NCBI GenBank assembly: GCA_964421125.1
Contig: CAYQVD010000006.1
Span: 1 to 63,005, forward strand
Direction: 5' to 3'
Origin: an uncultured Bdellovibrionales bacterium
Lineage (GTDB): Bacteria; Patescibacteriota; Minisyncoccia; Moranbacterales; DUUL01
Length of the DNA stretch: 63,005 nt
Part shown: positions 20,735 to 63,005 of the stretch, in pieces
Position numbering within the stretch: position 1 is the stretch's first letter
Layout: each line of letters opens with the position of its first letter
The notes under the pieces: generated by a model
The model's input: the letters and a program-made list of their open reading frames with translations, nothing else
The model's database searches: none
Told to the model about the DNA's origin: nothing
Program-made: the position numbers and the translations under genes

Positions 20735-20942
20735 ACAATATCGCCTAAACTCACATCTTTTATGTGAGCATGGTGTAATAAATAACCTAGCTAATAGAGA
20801 CGGCCTCATGGTCGACACTTATTAGCTAGGTCAGTATTCCGAAAGGATGCTGGGCAATTCGAAAGGATTGTCGTCGATTCGTGAGGCCTTTTGTGTACTC
20901 ATGATCGATATTAAATCCTAGCTAATTAATTAGTTCAAAAAA
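20735..20942 (+). ncRNA. Candidate structured 5' leader or ncRNA upstream of 20943..21500
   Basis: The region is locally GC-enriched and holds several helices. There is a hairpin ctcacat/atgtgag and an 11-bp helix acctagctaat/attagctaggt. Two tandem GAAA-tetraloop hairpins follow (cagtattcc-gaaa-ggatgctg and ggcaattc-gaaa-ggattgtc). A long-range pair ggcctca/tgaggcc is possible, and a third cctagctaat copy sits next to the start codon. Confidence 0.35.
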
Positions 20943-52552: not shown

Positions 52553-54013
52553 ATGGCTAATACTAAAAAAACAACTAAAAAGAAGATAGTGAAAAAAGCC
52601 ACTTCGAAAAAGCGAAGAGTTGTTTCTCCAAAAAAAAAGAAAAGTATTATAGCGAAAAAGAAAGCTATAAAAAAAACAACTAAAATTCAACCACGAAAAA
52701 AAGCTTCTCAAAAGAAGGTTGTTTTGAAGACTAGAAAAGTAAAAAAAACTGAGCCTAAAAAAAGGAAGACTGCGGTATCAAAAATTAAAGCTCCTGTTGT
52801 TGAGAAAAAGAAGACAAAGAAAATAGCTCTTTCTCGAAATCAGAAAAAACTTGAGAAGGCTCGAGAAATGACTCGACAGAAAAAGGAAGAGAATTCTAAG
52901 GAGAAAAAGGAACAGAAAAAGGATTCAGAGTCAGAGCTTCTTGTTAAGAGAGGAAAACAAAGAGGTTTTATTACGGAAGATGAAATTCTTCATGCGCTGG
53001 GTGATGTTGAAAAGGATATTGAAACTTTGGAGGAATTTTATGGTCAAGTTGAAAAATTAGGAATTAAGATTATTTCTTCTGATGAGATTCTTAAGAATGA
53101 AATTGAAAAAGAAGCGGAAAATCAAAGAGCTAAAAAGAAAGAGCCTGCTAAGAGCAGGCGGACTATTGGTGGAGACGAAGTGAGTACTACTGATTCAATT
53201 CAGATGTATCTTCGAGAAATTGGGAAAGTCCCACTTTTAACTGGGGAAGAAGAGGTTTCTCTTGCAAAGGGAATTGAAAGAGGTGATCAATCTTCAAAGC
53301 AACAATTGACTGAGGCAAATTTGCGTTTGGTTGTTTCGATTGCCAAGAAATATGTTGGAAGAAGTCATAATCTTTCTTTTCTTGATTTAATTCAAGAGGG
53401 GAATATTGGTTTGTTTCGAGCAGTAGAGAAATTTGATTATAAGAAAGGATATAAGTTTTCAACTTATGCAACTTGGTGGATTCGTCAAGCGATCACTCGA
53501 GCAATTGCTGATCAATCTCGAACGATTAGAATTCCAGTTCATATGGTTGAAACTATTAATAAATATATTCAAGTAACCAGAAGACTTGTTCAGGAGTTGG
53601 GGCGGGAACCATTGCCAGAGGAAGTGGCATCTGAAATGAACTTGGAGGTTGCAAAAGTTCGACATATTATGAAGGTTTCTCAGGAAACTGTTTCTCTGGA
53701 AACTTCAATTGGTGATGATGATAGCGAAAGTGTTTTGAGCGATTTTATTGAGGACACTGAAACTGTTAGGCCAAATCAGGAAGCATCAAGGACTCTTTTG
53801 AAAAATCACATCACTGAAGTTTTGGATAAACTTTCTTTACGAGAGCAGAAGATTTTAAAAATTCGATTTGGACTTGAAGATGGAGTTACTCACACACTTG
53901 AAGAAGTGGGAAATGAGTTTGGTGTGACTCGAGAACGAATTCGACAAATCGAAGCAAAGACTTTGGAAAAAATCCGGGAGATGAAGGGGATGAAGAAGTT
54001 GAAGGATTACTAA
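52553..54013 (+). CDS. rpoD: Primary sigma-70 factor with a ~130-aa lysine-rich N-terminal extension
   Basis: Regions 2-4: [54 protein letters not shown] and the C-terminal [20 protein letters not shown]. Confidence 0.9.
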
Positions 54014-56313: not shown

Positions 56314-56341
56314 TTGACAAAATGGTTAAAATGTGTATAAT
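56314..56341 (+). promoter_or_regulatory. Candidate sigma-70 promoter of the DGR target gene
   Basis: TTGACA-16 nt-TATAAT. Confidence 0.55.
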
Positions 56342-56450
56342 ATATTGAATGCATGGAATGGTGCATTTGTTCTTAAGAATGGCGAGTCTGGGGCGTTGGC
56401 ATTGAGGCTGATGTGAGGGGTAAGCTAAAAAAATGAAAAGGAGAATTGTC

Positions 56451-57110
56451 ATGGCTCAAAAAGTCGAAGGCAACTTGTATGAAAGTATTACAGGTCAACT
56501 CTTTGAGATTGGCCGACAACTTCGTCAAAAAGGAGGCTATCCTTTTAATCCCGAAATGCTTCAAATATATCTTCAGGGGGCGGTTGAGGGGAAGTTTATT
56601 TTCGGTGATTCAAAATCAATTTCCACCGACAAGCCTTTTAATCCAGCCAAATTTATCGATGAAGGCTGGACAATTTGGAAGGGATCGATCGACGGTGACG
56701 GGTTGTCTGGGGAGGAAGACGTTGACCCTCGTTCGTTGGAACTGGCTGAAGTTGATCTCGCCAAATTTGTTTTCGAGACTTGTCTCGAAAAAAATGAAAC
56801 TTCAATTTCTGGTGAGGAAAAACTTCTCCGACTGAAAGAAAAATCGGAGTTTATTCGATTCGGTGCCAATGTTTTTCTTGGGCTGCGGGAAGACTATCAG
56901 GCCAAAAAAGAAAACAGCGTGTTAGAATGGTTATATCGGAATCATAAAATTACTTTTATGGATTTTCCGGGAACAGTTCTTCGCGATCCGGACGGCGACC
57001 GTCACGTACTCTGTCTTTTTCGGAATGATGGTGGCGAGTGGGACTGGGGCTATGATTGGCTCGGCTGTCAGTGTAATTCCGACAGTCCTTCCGTCGGTTG
57101 CGCAAATTAG
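56451..57110 (+). CDS. DGR target (variable) protein with no signal peptide; the C-terminal ~45 aa are the variable region
   Basis: ATG 56451 is preceded by aaggag at 7 nt (the track start 56433 is also possible). The C-terminus ...[43 protein letters not shown] aligns to the template repeat. Confidence 0.8.
56973..57107 (+). repeat. DGR variable region (VR)
   Basis: 135-nt alignment with 57519-57653. There are 11 mismatches, each at a TR adenine. The 3' ~40 nt are identical (IMH-like) and contain the hairpin ccgac-agtccttcc-gtcgg. Confidence 0.9.
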
Positions 57111-57210
57111 TTCTAAGATCTCGGAACCTTAGTTTTTTGAACTTTAATTCTTTGTCCTTTTTCGCGAAATTTTTTTCGCAACGCTTTCCAAATTGTGCGG
57201 ATACAATTTG

Positions 57211-57244
57211 GAACTTCATATAAAAATATATGAAGTTTTTTTAT
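57211..57244 (+). terminator. Rho-independent terminator between the target gene and TR
   Basis: aacttcatat-aaaaat-atatgaagtt followed by a T-run. Confidence 0.75.
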
Positions 57245-57518
57245 TTTATGTTAAAATAAAAAATGGAAGTAGGTAAATATGCAAGCGACTAAGGTTTTTT
57301 GCTACCGAAACTAGTATCCATATAATCCGGAGTATCCACGATCAAGGTTTTGGATAGTGTGATATATGTAGACCCGCCTGCAAAGTTATGCGTAGCATTG
57401 CGGGCAGGAACTTTCAAAAAATGAAGATACTTGGTGTAAGATATTAGGGTATTTTAGATATCGAATAAAATTCAACCTTGAGAGTATTCGAAAGGTGGTG
57501 GTATGGAAAATATTTTAT

Positions 57519-57653
57519 ACAATTCTTCGCAATCCGAACGGCAACCGTCACGTACTCTATCTTTATCGGAATGATGGTGGCGAGTGGGACTGGAACTATA
57601 ATTGGCTCGACTATCAGTGTAATTCCGACAGTCCTTCCGTCGGTTGCGCAAAT
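57519..57653 (+). repeat. DGR template repeat (TR)
   Basis: Non-coding copy of VR with A at all 11 mismatched positions. AAY codons (AAT/AAC) occupy the variable sites. Confidence 0.9.
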
Positions 57654-57671
57654 CTCTTCATTTCTCTCTCG

Positions 57672-58049
57672 TTATTTTTTATCAGGAGAGTTTTTCTTTA
57701 CAAGACTTCCATGCCAACCTCCCAGATTTCTGCCAATCTCATTCAACTTTTCAGAAAGTTGAATATATTTTTTATTATCTAAGGATTTGGTTTCCCAAAG
57801 AATATTGAGAAATATTTTCAATACATCAGATTTGCGAATAGCTAGTTTGACATATGGTATTTTTTCTTCTGGTTTTAAAAAAGTGGCAATAGCTACTGAT
57901 TCGATAATTTCGGTAAAATATTTATCTATTTTTTGTCCAAGATTGAATCTATGTTCTTTGGGTAAAATCCTATAATACTCATGCCATAGAAGATAAAGAC
58001 TTTTTATTTTTTCAAAAACTGCTGGCAAATTTTGGGTGTGGGTAATCAT
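57672..58049 (-). CDS. avd: DGR accessory variability determinant (Avd; four-helix-bundle, 23S rRNA IVS protein family)
   Basis: 125 aa of helical pattern. LPKEHRFNLGQKI and the C-terminal EIGRNLGGW, which resembles the EVGRILGSW end of the Bordetella phage Avd. Confidence 0.75.
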   Translation of the reverse strand: MITHTQNLPAVFEKIKSLYLLWHEYYRILPKEHRFNLGQKIDKYFTEIIESVAIATFLKPEEKIPYVKLAIRKSDVLKIFLNILWETKSLDNKKYIQLSEKLNEIGRNLGGWHGSLVKKNSPDKK

Positions 58050-58065
58050 ACTTGTAAAATTAAAA

Positions 58066-59088
58066 ATGAAAAAACAGTTTAGTGGAAACTATAATGATAT
58101 TAGTTGTTTAGAAAATCTACTTTTAGCGTGGAAAGAGTTTGTCTGCGGAAAAAAGAATAAAAAAGATGTGCAAGAATTTTCTTTTCGTCTGATGGATAAT
58201 ATTTTTTTGCTTCATAGCGAACTTTCTAATCATACCTACAATCATGGTGGCTATCAAGCTTTTAAAATTAATGATTCAAAACCAAGAGATATTCACAAAG
58301 CGAAAGTCAGAGATAGATTATTACATCATGCGATTTATCGAAAACTATATCCATTTTTTGACAAAACTTTTATTTCTGATTCATATTCTTGTCGAAACAA
58401 CAAAGGCACACATAAAGCGATTAATAAGTTTCAAGAATATTTTTACAAAGTTAGTCAAAACAATACTAATACTTGCTGGGTTTTGAAGGGTGATATCAGA
58501 AAATTCTTTGCTAGCATTGATCAGGAAATTCTAATCAAAATATTACAAGAATATATTCTGGATGAAAATATTTTGAAACTTTTAGAGGATGTTATTGGAA
58601 GTTTTTCATCAAGAAGGAATAAGGGTGTTGGACTGCCACTTGGTAATCTTACTTCTCAGTTATTTGTGAATATTTATATGAATAAATTTGATCAGTTTGT
58701 GAAACACAAACTGAAAGAAAAATATTATATTCGTTATGCGGATGATTTCGTTATTTTGTCAGAAGATAAAAGAGCGTTAGAAGATTTAACGGAGGAAATA
58801 AAAGAGTTTCTTTGGAATAAGCTAAAATTAGAATTGCATCCGAATAAAGTGTCTATCAAAACATTTTCTTCCGGCATTGATTTCTTGGGAATGGTTAATT
58901 TTCCAGATCATAAAATTTTGAGAACAAAAACTAAAAAACGAATGTTTAACAAGGTTTTTAAAAATAAAAAGTTATTGCAAAAAGAAATGATTTTTGAAGA
59001 AAAATTTAATCAAAGTCTGCAGTCATATTTGGGAAATCTGAAGCATTGTAGTGGATATAAGATTGGGAAGGAAATTGATGGTATTTAA
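58066..59088 (+). CDS. DGR reverse transcriptase
   Basis: YADD catalytic box (IRYADDFVIL) and LPLGNLTSQLFVNIY, the [LIV]GxxxSQ motif that distinguishes DGR RTs from group II intron and retron RTs. ATG 58066 is preferred over GTG 58036. Confidence 0.85.
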   Translation: MKKQFSGNYNDISCLENLLLAWKEFVCGKKNKKDVQEFSFRLMDNIFLLHSELSNHTYNHGGYQAFKINDSKPRDIHKAKVRDRLLHHAIYRKLYPFFDKTFISDSYSCRNNKGTHKAINKFQEYFYKVSQNNTNTCWVLKGDIRKFFASIDQEILIKILQEYILDENILKLLEDVIGSFSSRRNKGVGLPLGNLTSQLFVNIYMNKFDQFVKHKLKEKYYIRYADDFVILSEDKRALEDLTEEIKEFLWNKLKLELHPNKVSIKTFSSGIDFLGMVNFPDHKILRTKTKKRMFNKVFKNKKLLQKEMIFEEKFNQSLQSYLGNLKHCSGYKIGKEIDGI

Positions 59089-59184: not shown

Positions 59185-59212
59185 TTGACAATGTTTTTAG
59201 AAGTGCTATATT
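59185..59212 (+). promoter_or_regulatory. Candidate sigma-70 promoter upstream of the 23S rRNA gene
   Basis: TTGACA-16 nt-TATATT. Confidence 0.5.
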
Positions 59213-61740
59213 TTACATTGAAGTTTGACAAGTGAAAGGGGAATGAGATTTACGTCTCTAACTAAAAACATTTTTCACAATCAAATTAAAGTAACCAATT
59301 AATGGTAAGAGATTACAAAAAATCAAAATCCAAAACATAAGCGATTAACAAAATGTTAAGTGTTAGTTAATATCGCTTTGAAGGCGATTTTTTGTTTCTA
59401 AAATATTAAGAGTCCATTCCAAATTCTATTTTCTACTGCAATTTCCAAATTTAAGTTACAAGAAGTTCACCACTCGTCAACAGATTTCCGATATGCTTCT
59501 TCGTGCTTCATCTCTCTCGCTTTAAATTTGAAAATTTCGTAACGAAATAGAATTCAAAATAAACTCTTTGAAAGAAGTTATCTAATAAGAATTTTATTGA
59601 TTTTCTTTAGATGATTTCTTGGGATTGCTTAACGGCAATTTCTGGAGTCGGGAACTTTGAAAACAGAATATTGATGTAGTAAAAAGTTAATGGCAATTTC
59701 AATTGTATATAGCGCAAATAATTTAGATTTATTAATCTTTGTTATTTGCTAGTCGAAAAAAAATGCGGTAATAAAATACTCAATTAACGCGCATGGTGGA
59801 TGCCTTGACTGAAGCAAGCGAAGAAGGACGTGGAAGTCTGCGATAAGCCTCGGGGAGATGACAAACAATCTTTGATCCGGGGATTTCCGAATGCGGCAAC
59901 GCAATAGAGTGAACCTCTATTACTTTTGTTTTTTATTAAACAAGAGGGCAAACCCGGGGAACTGAAACATCTTAGTACCCGGAGGAAAAGAAATCGAAGA
60001 GATTCCCTCAGTAGTGGCGAGCGAAAGGGGAGAAGCCTAAACCGACACTTCGGTGTCGGGGTTGCGAGGCAATTATTCCTATTTAATTAGGGCGAACAAC
60101 ATTATTTTTAGTTTAACATCCTTGGAAAGGGAGACCATAGAAGGTAATAGTCCTGTAAGCGAAAAAGATAATACTTTGCAGTAATTGTTCTCAAGTAGGG
60201 CGGGGCCGGAGAAACCCTGTCTGAATCCGGGATCACTATAATTCCAAGGCTAAATATTGCTTCAGATCGATAGCGAACTAGTACCGTGAGGGAAAGGTTA
60301 AAAGAACCCCGATAAGGGGAGTGAAATAGATCCTGAAACCATGTGCTTACAAAGAGTCGGAGTCCTGCTTGCAGGATGACGGCGTGCTTTTTGCAGAACG
60401 AGCCAACGAGTTAGTTTTATACGGCTTGCTTAATTCCGTTAAAATGGAAGAAGGCGTAGTGAAAGCGAGGCTTAACCGCCGAATATGTCGTATGAACTAG
60501 ACCCGAATCCGGACGAGCTACACATGAGCAGGGTGAATCTCAAGTAACATTGAGAGGAGGCCCGAACCCACGCGTCGTTCAACTCGCGGGGATGACTTGT
60601 GTGTAGAGGAGAAATTCCAATCGAGTCCGGCAATAGCTGGTTCTTTCCGAAATAGCTTTAGGGCTAGCGTCAAGCAACTATTAATGAGAGGTAGAGCTAC
60701 TGAATGAATAATCGGGCTATGCCTAGATTATTCAACCAAACTCCGAATGCTCATTAAATTATCTTGGCAGTCAGAACTTGGGCTCTAAGGTCCAAGCTCA
60801 AAAGGGAAACAGCCCAGATCACAATCTAAGGTCCCTAAATTCATACTAAGTGGGAAAGGTAGTGAAACTACTAAAACAGCTAGAAGGTTGGCTTAGAAGC
60901 AGCCATCCTTTAAAGAGTGCGTAACAGCTCACTAGTCTAGTGGTTTTGCATCGAAAATGTAACGGGGCTAAGTATGGTACCGAAGATGTGGATTCTTCAC
61001 CTATTTATAGGTGTGGAATGGTAGGAAAGCGTTCTATGCGCACTGAAGCCTAAGGCGTGAGCCAAGGTGGAGTTCATAGAAGTGAGAATGTTGGCATGAG
61101 TAATCGCAATATAAGTGAGATTCTTATACACCGAAAGTCTAAGGTTTCCTGGGCTATGATAATCATCCCAGGGTTAGTCGGTCCTAAGGCAAGTCCCTGT
61201 TTCGATGGGGGGTAGTCGATGGACAATAGGTTAATATTCCTATACTACTATATTATTCGATGGAGTGACGTATTTTAGTAATCTTTGCCGGTTATTGGAT
61301 TCCGGTAGGGGTATTGAGGGTGTTGAATTGGTAAATCCGTCAACATAAGCCCAAGATACCACTGGAATTTCCGTTTCGGCGGAAAAAACAAAGATGAGCA
61401 GAATACCTGGAAAAGCTTCTAAGGTTAATGATATAGTAACCGTACCAAAACCAACACAGGTAGACAGGGCGAGTAGCCCAAGGTGAATGGGAGAACCCTC
61501 GTTAAGGAACTCGGCAAAACAGCGACCGTAACTTAGGGATATGGTCTGCCCATGTTTAAATACATGGGCCGCAGCTAAAGATGCCTGGCGACTGTTTACC
61601 AAAAACACAGCTCTCTGCAAACCCGTAAGGGGAAGTATAGGGGGTGACGCCTGACCAGTGCCGGAACGTTAACGGGAGCGATGCAAGTCAATCCCCGAAG
61701 CGCCGGTGAACGTCAGCGATAACTATAATCGTTCTAAGGT

Positions 61741-62102
61741 TGAGATTATTCGTTTCGAGTAATTTCAAAGACTGGAACGATTATGGTGGGTAAATAGAAT
61801 CCTTACAAACAAGTCTTTAAAAGGAATAGTAACTGTCTATTATGTAATAGTTTACATAATGTCTCAAAATATTCAGCCGTATGCTGGAAAATCTGGAGTA
61901 TCTGCTAGTACTATGGTGTAATTATTTATAATTGCATTTCAAGTTAAAATCTATGCAGTGTTCTAATGTTTAGTGCCAGACAATCAGCAGGAAAGACTAA
62001 GATTTATTTCTTGGAATCCTCAGAGACTGAACGCTGAACTTTGACACAAGGTCGGAGAAGTTACAGTCCGTTCTCTATGGCGACATAGAGCTAACACAAA
62101 AG
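61741..62102 (+). other. 362-nt intron-like insertion in 23S domain IV (E. coli ~1917 site); group I intron candidate without an ORF
   Basis: It interrupts the universal ...ctaaggT | AGCGAAATTCCTTGTCGGGTAA... block. The upstream exon ends in T and the insert ends in G. Confidence 0.6.
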
Positions 62103-62380
62103 AGCGAAATTCCTTGTCGGGTAAATTCCGACCCGCATTAAAGGCGTAACGACTGGGCAACTGTCTCAACGAGGGACCCAATGAAATTGCAGTGGGGGTA
62201 AAGATGCCCCCTACCTACGGCAAGACGAAAAGACCCCGTGGAGCTTTACTACAACTTGGCATTGTGTTTGAGATTATATTGCCGAGCATAGGTGGGAGAC
62301 TTTGAAGTTTCGATTCTGGTCGAGATGGAGTCACCAGTGGAATACCACCCTATATGCTTTTAAACACTAACCTTGGTCTG

Positions 62381-62601
62381 TTATTTGGACTTTTTGGTTG
62401 ACAATTCAAGTTGAGTAGTAGAGATTTTCACTTAAATATACATTAGGTATATTTTGAATATGTGATATGCACATATTTTGTAACAGTGTTTTCAAGAGTT
62501 TGTTTATAAATTTCTCTTTGAGCAAGAGACTATTAGCATAAATAAACTTTAACACTCAATTTGTATTGTTGATCTAAATCAAAAAGAAAGAGTCTAAATA
62601 C
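62381..62601 (+). other. ~220-nt AT-rich helix expansion or intervening sequence in 23S domain V
   Basis: It lies between ccttggtctg and cagaccagg, where E. coli has a short hairpin (GACCCGTAATCCGGGTT). The arms ttatttggact.../...agtctaaata extend the helix. Confidence 0.6.
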
Positions 62602-62905
62602 CAGACCAGGAACAGTGCCTGGTGGGTAGTTTGACTGGGGCGGTCACCTCCCAAACAGTAACGGAGGTGCTCACAAAGGTTGGCTAGTTCCGGATGGAAA
62701 TCGGAACGATAGGACAAAACCATAAGCCAGCTTTACTGCAAGACTTATCAGTCGAGCAGTTGCGAAAGCAGGATTTAGTGAACCGACTGTCACTTATAGG
62801 AGTGCAGAAGATCAACAGATAAAAGTTACCCCGGGGATAACAGGCTAATAGCGCCCAATAGTTCACATAGACGGCGCTGTTTGGCACCTCGATGTCGGCT
62901 CATCT

Positions 62906-62936
<31 letters not shown>

Positions 62937-63005
62937 TGGCTGTTCGCCAATTAAAGAGGTACGCGAGCTGGGTTCAAACCGTCGTAAGACAGGTTGGTCT
63001 CTATC

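Follow-up and report, generated by a model that had tools for sequence, protein, structure and literature searches.

Bacteria of the candidate phyla radiation (CPR), or Patescibacteria, are rich in diversity-generating retroelements (DGRs). The prototype of these elements resides in the Bordetella phage BPP-1 and comprises mtd with its variable repeat (VR), the accessory gene avd, the template repeat (TR) and the reverse transcriptase (RT) gene brt. The essential RNA of BPP-1 includes 20 nt upstream of TR and a 140-nt downstream spacer (Sp), which binds Avd and envelops the reverse transcriptase bRT, and which base-pairs with the upstream segment and supplies the priming adenosine (bioRxiv 10.1101/2023.10.23.563531). 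Within the CPR, the order TR-(avd)-RT has been classified as architecture B3 by Wu et al. (2018), who left several VR classes ('UVR1-6') unassigned (PMC5758913), and Roux et al. (2021) have described a CPR-restricted DGR clade 2 (PMC8144416); the RTs of Patescibacteria cluster together (PMC11661182). Here we describe a DGR at positions 56,314 to 59,088 of contig CAYQVD010000006.1 (assembly GCA_964421125.1), which derives from an uncultured bacterium that is deposited under the name Bdellovibrionales and placed by GTDB in the Patescibacteriota (Moranbacterales). The whole stretch of 63,005 nt that was analysed is referred to as the window, and all coordinates refer to it. The element is, in our judgement with high confidence, a complete and recently active DGR of a Patescibacteria-specific clade with the known layout target gene - TR - (avd) - RT. 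As a DGR it is ordinary, one more member of a catalogued kind, and its moderate interest stems from a structured RNA upstream of the template and from the uncharacterised scaffold of its target protein.

The retroelement and its relatives

A preliminary description, made from the sequence alone, had proposed that all four parts of a DGR are present, and each of them passes independent tests (repeat, RT, Avd and target). The region holds a single ungapped direct repeat of 135 nt with 92% identity, and programmatic alignment returns the coordinates originally proposed: VR at 56973-57107 and TR at 57519-57653, both on the plus strand. VR forms the last 45 codons (175-219) of the target gene and TR is non-coding; a third copy of TR is absent from the 63-kb window. 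Base-by-base comparison reproduces exactly the 11 mismatches reported earlier, each with an A in the downstream copy (ten A>G, one A>T), and given the 33 adenines among the 135 TR bases this exclusive distribution has a hypergeometric P of 4.3e-8. Similarity between the repeats has abrupt ends at 56973 and 57107. The TR codons affected are ATT, AAT, AAC, AAC, TAT, TAT, AAC, AAT, GAC and TAT (I,N,N,N,Y,Y,N,N,D,Y), which amends in small points an earlier list that was mostly right. Twenty-six of the TR adenines lie upstream of the last adenine seen mutated; distributed over 19 codons, they allow a computed total of about 2e14 protein variants.

The final 40 nt of the two repeats are identical, as had been stated. 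They include the invariant 3' segment of VR (57071-57107, plus strand), which resembles an initiation of mutagenic homing (IMH) site, equals the 3' segment of TR and keeps its adenines unchanged in both strains compared below. Relatives that share the target family do not preserve the small hairpin that had been considered IMH-like (57079-57097), which was discarded. DGRs often carry a cruciform-forming repeat just downstream of VR, and folding of 36 loci places a weak imperfect hairpin, not assigned to a strand, just 3' of VR (57110-57142) that is stronger in most relatives. The terminal bases of TR (57646-57653 in the window) are kept as G(C/A)AA(A/C)T across related loci, with GCGCAAAT, CCGAAACT and CTGAAACT as examples of such 3' ends. 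Since this conservation extends even across unrelated target families, it points to a constraint imposed by the retrohoming machinery and not by the encoded protein. Exact-pattern scans of genome and metagenome contigs with the 30-nt invariant VR/TR segment gave no match.

The activity of the element can be judged from L006, a 1,114-nt JGI contig (3300039186, Ga0400660_0135642) that is the source of target homologue P0011 and is 98.3% identical to window positions 56723-57372. The two sequences differ at 11 of 650 positions. Ten of these differences fall within VR, ten out of ten at positions where the window TR has adenine, and the 515 nt outside VR contain a single mismatch. At some VR positions the window and L006 share the same non-template base, at others one is template-like and the other mutated, and two more template adenines (in GAG and CAG codons) are mutated in L006 only. 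Because ten VR differences, all at TR adenines, stand amid near-identical flanks, the comparison of the two sequences indicates at least one retrohoming event after the very recent split of the two strains. The expectation that VR heterogeneity would keep to the template adenines is thereby borne out by a near-identical contig, albeit one contig. Beyond the compared region (L006 positions 650-1114, against window 57373-57430) and past the AAAAAATGAAGATA of the RNA leader discussed below, L006 consists of unrelated DNA in which an open reading frame (ORF) rich in lysine and glutamate (MKIDLELSIS...) replaces the 3' leader domain, TR, avd and RT. The break marks either a strain whose cassette was deleted or rearranged, or an assembly chimera.

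The RT gene (58066-59088, plus strand) encodes 340 amino acids (aa) with the motifs LGNLTSQ (58639-58659) and YADD (58735-58746), by which it had been recognised from the outset. The protein matches PF00078 (E 7e-28) and scores 367 bits against the phage RT family phrog_1423. Among solved structures, its closest relative is bRT of the Bordetella phage DGR (8ub7_A, E 6.8e-42); in the same PDB search the best group II intron RT reaches E 2.9e-16 and chains deposited as retron-type RTs about 2e-15. The RT is nearer to bRT than to group II RTs by about 26 orders of magnitude in E-value, a call of lineage that is made from motifs and from E-value and bit-score similarity. The avd gene (57672-58049) encodes a basic protein of 125 aa with an isoelectric point (pI) of 9.6. 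An Avd-like gene of this length between TR and RT was part of the preliminary description, and stands, with its strand corrected to minus: avd runs towards TR and away from the RT gene, with 16 nt between the start codons of avd and RT. The hidden Markov model (HMM) comparison that had been suggested for Avd yields a match to PF22296 (bAvd) at 40.5 bits with a cut-off of 40, and the protein also matches phrog_3206 'Avd protein of DGR' (E 1.3e-13). The position of avd on the opposite strand is a known feature, since the classification of Wu et al. (2018) includes it in B3, and the arrangement of an upstream target, TR, avd on the reverse strand and RT matches this architecture in the window as well as in the related loci with upstream DNA.

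With an alignment of five RTs (63-71% identity), 286 RT relatives were recovered among the GTDB species genomes, and the clade statistics given here derive from 80 of them with about 59-75% RT identity. The 80 are named almost entirely Patescibacteria; the handful with other names are probably mis-binned. In loci with upstream DNA, avd lies on the minus strand immediately upstream of RT with one exception (L015). TR measures 99-142 nt and ends at most about 40 nt, usually no more than 25 nt, from the avd stop codon, and VR precedes TR on the same strand by about 370-590 nt. Over 70 related loci, 1,236 of 1,317 TR/VR mismatches (93.8%) are at TR adenines. The window element is a typical member of this very stereotyped clade, which agrees with DGR clade 2 (PMC8144416) and with the clustering of Patescibacteria RTs (PMC11661182). 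In relation to the described CPR and B3 elements (PMC5758913) and to clade 2, it has the same host group, gene order and orientation, the same cellular rather than phage context and the same small targets without known domains (the 'UVR' classes), and nothing essential differs.

With BPP-1 the element shares a TR/VR pair with adenine-specific differences, an RT with an SQ-type motif 4 and YxDD, the accessory protein Avd and the location of VR at the C-terminus of the target. By analogy with BPP-1, TR would be transcribed, a complex of RT and Avd would copy the TR RNA into cDNA while misincorporating opposite adenines, and the cDNA would replace VR. Unlike in BPP-1, avd is located on the opposite strand downstream of TR, and the target is a small, cytoplasmic-looking protein without a detectable Mtd-like or C-type lectin (CLec) sequence signature, whereas the target of the phage element forms the tip of the tail fibre.

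The diversified target protein

The target gene (56451-57110, plus strand; alternative start at 56433) encodes a variable protein of 219 aa. It is preceded by a promoter-like site (56314-56341, plus strand), TTGACA-16-TATAAT, which matches the consensus at 12 of 12 positions, and TTGACA/TATAmT boxes are also found upstream of the target genes of relatives. The intervening 5' untranslated region (UTR; 56342-56450, about 105 nt) contains a motif common to L004 and L019, AAyGGCrAGT...GGCA...GGGGTrAGCyAAA, and other relatives have a long hairpin (GCCATAGCAGAAAG...CTTTCTGCTATGGC) instead. It is possible that these are regulatory RNAs; Rfam gives no match in the target 5' UTR. The protein is acidic (pI 4.7) and lacks a signal-like N-terminus as well as a transmembrane or hydrophobic segment (maximal Kyte-Doolittle value 0.65 over 19 residues), so the earlier view of a cytoplasmic-looking target holds when it is computed from the sequence.

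Pfam, NCBIfam, PHROGS, PADLOC and the sequences of the PDB contain no match to the target, and a search of the GTDB genomes with the single protein found no related loci. A word-indexed search collects a family of 277 proteins at E <= 0.001, and an exhaustive search at least 1,590 representatives at 50% identity (E <= 1e-3), almost all of those listed being 120-290 aa long. The few source-named members of the former set all come from CPR taxa, which suggests a family restricted to Patescibacteria. Of the 80 related loci, about 20 have this target family. In the remainder, VR lies at the C-terminus of targets from at least seven further small families, so that the clade diversifies at least eight small target families of roughly 160-260 aa (loci L007-L086); nine proteins representing these other families are without a match in Pfam. 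Two targets in the clade are long (671 aa in L061, 646 aa in L070). An N-terminal helical module is common to different VR-domain families (e.g. MKKDMLGxVVRKIVDLP... in L007 and L012), a hint that modules have been exchanged. With 66% identity, a close homologue of the window target stands alone at 5001-5678 of L001, a 100.8-kb contig (JGI 3300037067), where it is flanked by NuoF-like (Complex1_51K) and Fe-S cluster genes and has neither TR nor avd nor RT within 5 kb. Either a DGR elsewhere in the genome acts on this homologue as a remote target, or the homologue has lost its DGR.

In the family alignment, a variable N-terminal segment of about 50 residues, which takes at least two forms, is followed by a conserved core from around residue 56. 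The VR follows the pattern GxVLRxPxGxRxVLxLxRxxxGxWxWxxxWLxxxWxAxxPSAGCAS, in which variable and conserved positions alternate. AlphaFold2 models the protein with a predicted local distance difference test score (pLDDT) of 89.2 over its full length and of 96.4 for residues 56-219, the latter with a predicted template modelling score (pTM) of 0.90. The core is predicted to form one compact alpha/beta domain with VR as its last four or five beta-strands. It had been thought that an N-terminal part of about 170 aa was unrecognisable; there is indeed no domain match, and the notion of a separate N-terminal part gives way to a compact domain that begins at residue 56. In the model, the variable residues alternate on the C-terminal beta-strands and loops of this apparently cytoplasmic domain, where they would make up a diversified ligand-binding face.

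To our knowledge, all structurally characterised DGR variable proteins have a C-type lectin fold, and a structural model had been proposed as a way to look for such a scaffold here. The model is confident and the resemblance faint: against the PDB and BFVD, Foldseek finds no match to the target models at E <= 0.001, and the sole superpositions above noise are with C-type lectin carbohydrate-recognition domains at E 0.3-1.6, none of them significant. These are 3wbr_G (TM-scores 0.37/0.46 over 141 columns, probability 0.41) and 4kzw_A (TM-scores 0.34/0.40). The scaffold may be either a very diverged CLec fold or something else, and we lean slightly towards the former, in which case it would not be new. 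The lectin domains are the only PDB matches that superpose sensibly, a viral C-type lectin ranks second in BFVD, and the order of elements, beta-alpha-alpha followed by four or five beta-strands with VR in the last of them, fits the fold; VR regions that have been annotated are moreover systematically CLec (PMC8144416). What keeps the balance close is that a model with a pLDDT of 96 fails to reach E 0.001 anywhere in the PDB or BFVD, that the 50 Foldseek matches listed include no solved DGR variable protein, and that none of 61 target homologues matches Pfam, the CLec, FGE-sulfatase and DUF1566 HMMs included, while the family profile draws nothing from the PDB sequences. Several VR classes of the CPR were left unassigned for the same reason (PMC5758913).

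A structured RNA upstream of the template

The 410-nt interval between VR and TR is not empty and accommodates a probable target terminator, a promoter-like box and a conserved structured RNA leader, all on the plus strand. Two hairpins, the second followed by a T-run (57186-57242), are the likely terminator of the target gene, and a hairpin with a T-run occupies the same place in relatives. An extended -10 box, TGtTAAAAT (57249-57257), is a putative promoter of the TR RNA judging from its conservation. In 36 loci the box keeps a near-constant distance of about 230 nt from the start of TR; in the window the distance is 267 nt, owing to a 36-nt insertion. This insertion is an optional GC-rich hairpin (57373-57408) that is absent from L006 and most relatives and present at the same site in L023 and L025. 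A second candidate for the TR promoter, TTGCTA-16-TATAAT (57299-57326), was rejected, as it lies inside the conserved helices H1/H2 and the box at a fixed distance is TGnTAAAAT.

The leader (57264-57520, about 255 nt) is strongly conserved and forms six covarying helices: H1 (57281-57290/57293-57302), H2 (57322-57327/57361-57365), H3 (57333-57342/57347-57356), H4 (57434-57445/57509-57520), H5 (57449-57452/57458-57461) and H6 (57475-57483/57488-57496). H4 is the closing helix of the 3' domain, and its end takes in the first two bases of TR. RNAalifold predicts 46 pairs, 39 of them with compensatory double changes. The predicted partners are paired in 96.7% of cells as compared to 73.3% upon shuffling (a value as high arises in 0 of 500 shuffles) and 39-50% after a slide of one to three columns, and the covariation score is 0.79 against 0.31. 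The fold of the single 437-nt RNA is not significantly more stable than that of its shuffles (z -1.67), and the case for structure accordingly rests on covariation and not on energy. When 33 loci are used to build a covariance model of the 3' domain, the model matches 78 of 85 sources, once each, on the RT strand and ending at TR, which includes about 45 loci outside the model set; the window scores 117.6 bits at 57411-57526. Sources without a match lack the region (the orphan target of L001, the truncated L006 and loci cut at RT), with L069 as an unexplained exception.

In the window and the 36 related loci, no Rfam family is found in the leader at gathering thresholds. Below threshold, and on the correct strand, RT-7 (RF03028) matches 57326-57432 (26.1 bits, gathering 116.8, E 3e-4) and RT-16 (RF03019) matches 57403-57525 (26.5 bits, gathering 50, E 0.07); RT-7 also gives a match below gathering in L016. 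The RT-7 match spans the H2/H3 hairpin with CCnGAGU...CAAGG...AGnGUG, and the RT-16 match the 3' domain H4-H6 including its conserved AUAAAAUnCA...GGUG core. Unlike in the Rfam entries, both pieces are here parts of one longer RNA that ends at TR. The RT motifs are candidate RNAs found near RT genes by Weinberg et al. (2017), who connected RT-10 with the spacer of BPP-1 and speculated about a role in DGRs for further RT motifs (PMC5737381). By Rfam criteria the leader is a member of neither RT-7 nor RT-16; as far as sequence similarity goes it is probably a distant relative of both, and it places RNAs of this type immediately upstream of a DGR template. The inclusion of TR within a conserved structured RNA is what is new here, and no description of it was found in the searchable literature.

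On its 3' side, TR is followed by two features. The linker directly 3' of TR, TCTTCATTT (57655-57663), is complementary to the leader strand AAATGAAGA (57419-57427), with which it can form a long-range duplex of 9 bp. When the anchors are set without reference to the duplex, in-register pairing is seen in 81.5% of cells; shuffling of partners among loci lowers this to 75.4% (a value as high as the observed one arises in 1 of 1000 shuffles), and sliding of the register to about 60%. Cognate leader/post-TR duplexes average -6.96 kcal/mol and non-cognate ones -4.60 (0 of 5000 permutations), and the duplex is present in the thermodynamic centroid of the 437-nt RNA of the window. The overlapping leader stretch 57425-57433, GATACTTGG, includes an invariant TTGG (57429-57432), and in one subgroup of loci the duplex reaches the last TR bases (AGUU with AACU), the leader AGUU adjoining this TTGG. 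The linker is followed by a terminator-like hairpin (57664-57690) and U-run (57691-57699) on the plus strand, with covarying stems in 36 of 36 loci. The avd stop codon falls in the hairpin loop, and on the other strand the 3' arm and U-run encode the conserved Avd C-terminus. RNAalifold finds no consensus structure from TR-25 to TR+170 that would correspond to a BPP-1-like spacer antisense to avd, and the entropy of third codon positions reveals no extra constraint on synonymous sites in the C-terminal part of avd. In the region searched for a spacer RNA, the terminator hairpin alone is conserved downstream of TR.

Taken from sequence conservation, the TR RNA is apparently a discrete non-coding transcript of about 435 nt that comprises -10 box, leader, TR, duplex and terminator. 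This is a different arrangement from BPP-1, where the structured RNA is the downstream 140-nt Sp: here its bulk (about 255 nt) is situated upstream of TR and a terminator-like hairpin lies within 11 nt after it. Most likely the leader would serve as the scaffold that binds RT and Avd and positions them, in the way that the downstream spacer does in BPP-1, and the 9-bp leader/linker duplex would bracket the template as the avd:Sp duplex does in the phage element. With the msr-msd of retrons there is a topological analogy only, in that structured RNA lies 5' of the template and a duplex joins the template flanks; the RT here is not of the retron type, evidence of multicopy single-stranded DNA (msDNA) is lacking, and a TR/VR pair and Avd are present. 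A bolder proposal, which we put forward tentatively and at well under even odds, is that the DGR RNA of the CPR clade is circularly permuted with respect to that of Bordetella, with a 5' scaffold and retron-like positioning or possibly priming, and that it is combined with a target fold new to DGRs. In such a permuted RNA the leader segment beside TTGG may pair with the 3' end of TR and the linker, and cDNA synthesis may be positioned, and possibly primed, from the upstream RNA.

An unlikely alternative takes the leader out of the retrohoming machinery altogether and makes it a regulatory leader, such as an attenuator or riboswitch for TR or RT, or a linked but independent small RNA. It can point to a leader role assigned from sequence, to the lack of an assigned function for the nearest families, RT-7 and RT-16, and to BPP-1, the only well-studied DGR, in which the essential structured RNA is downstream and only 20 nt upstream are needed. 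It does not readily account for an RNA that occurs exactly once per DGR locus, always abutting TR on the same strand, and whose H4 ends at the first TR bases. A leader segment that covaries with the sequence immediately 3' of TR argues instead for a leader that is physically tied to the ends of the template, akin to the avd:Sp duplex of BPP-1. The terminator directly after TR, furthermore, leaves little room for a BPP-1-like downstream spacer, and the avd synonymous sites are free of the extra constraint that such a spacer might impose.

Activity, descent and genomic surroundings

Several points weigh against the reading of the element as a complete and recently active DGR with a discrete template RNA. 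Avd scores 57.8 bits (E 1e-15) against NF033474 (DivGenRetAVD), below the NCBIfam cut-off of 80. Over the 37 nt that they share, IMH and IMH* do not differ and hence cannot be told from each other by sequence as the element that discriminates between donor and recipient. The RT gene lies downstream of a terminator-like hairpin and antisense to avd, an arrangement that does not readily account for its transcription. Conservation is the sole basis on which the TR RNA is assigned its promoter and terminator and the leader its role as a scaffold, the window has a weak hairpin downstream of VR, and the activity of the element is gauged from a single related contig, L006, which departs from the window after about 57429 and itself shows no TR, avd or RT. 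The last two points would also suit a relic, with parts that are still recognisable, retrohoming that has ceased and VR/TR differences that are the fossils of earlier activity; merely 11 of the 33 TR adenines differ, and ten of the 11 changes are A>G, as they could be in an old and selected VR. We regard a relic as very improbable: RT, Avd and the leader RNA are all intact with scores like those of their relatives, and sequences that are 99.8% identical outside VR differ at ten positions within it, all of them TR adenines. An ordinary product of duplication or recombination next to the RT of a group II intron or retron, to which the top NCBIfam match of the RT might be taken to point (a group II RT/maturase model, 146 bits, cut-off 300), is effectively refuted already by the adenine-only mismatches (P 4e-8), the much closer similarity of the RT to bRT, the adjoining avd gene, the same pattern in 70 related loci and the lack of any group II intron or retron RNA family of Rfam in the window.

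The DGR is followed on the plus strand by a bacterial 23S rRNA gene (59773-63005), which begins 685 nt after the RT stop codon and runs off the window. This stretch of 3,233 nt covers model positions 1-2642 only and must contain about 590 nt of insertions (introns or expansion segments); insertions in 23S rRNA are common in the CPR. A near-consensus promoter with a TG element, TTGACA-16-TATATT, is found at 59185-59212. Related DGR loci also adjoin genes for stable RNAs, namely a 16S rRNA with insertions (L083), the RNase P RNA (L067) and, in several cases, tRNAs. Upstream of the element, an ORF on the plus strand (52553-54013) encodes what we take, from the conserved sequence of regions 2-4, to be a sigma-70 family protein; its N-terminus is extended by about 130 residues that are very rich in lysine. 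Further away, a match to the LOOT RNA (RF03000) is located at 20742-20872 on the plus strand (70.3 bits, gathering 46.4). LOOT is a candidate structured RNA of unknown function from the Weinberg et al. (2017) set (PMC5737381).

The element is a clean and typical representative of a very large clade, with 286 species-level relatives, whose targets and RNA are uncharacterised. It makes testable whether a structured RNA upstream of the template, instead of a downstream spacer, can organise DGR reverse transcription, a question that bears on the generality of the cis-priming model derived from BPP-1, and likewise what the orphan 'RT-7' and 'RT-16' RNAs of Rfam do. A target family that is modelled confidently and has no significant fold match also makes it testable whether DGR diversification is confined to C-type-lectin scaffolds. 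Beyond the mechanism, the finding raises the question of the role that hypervariable cytoplasmic proteins play in ultra-small symbiotic bacteria.

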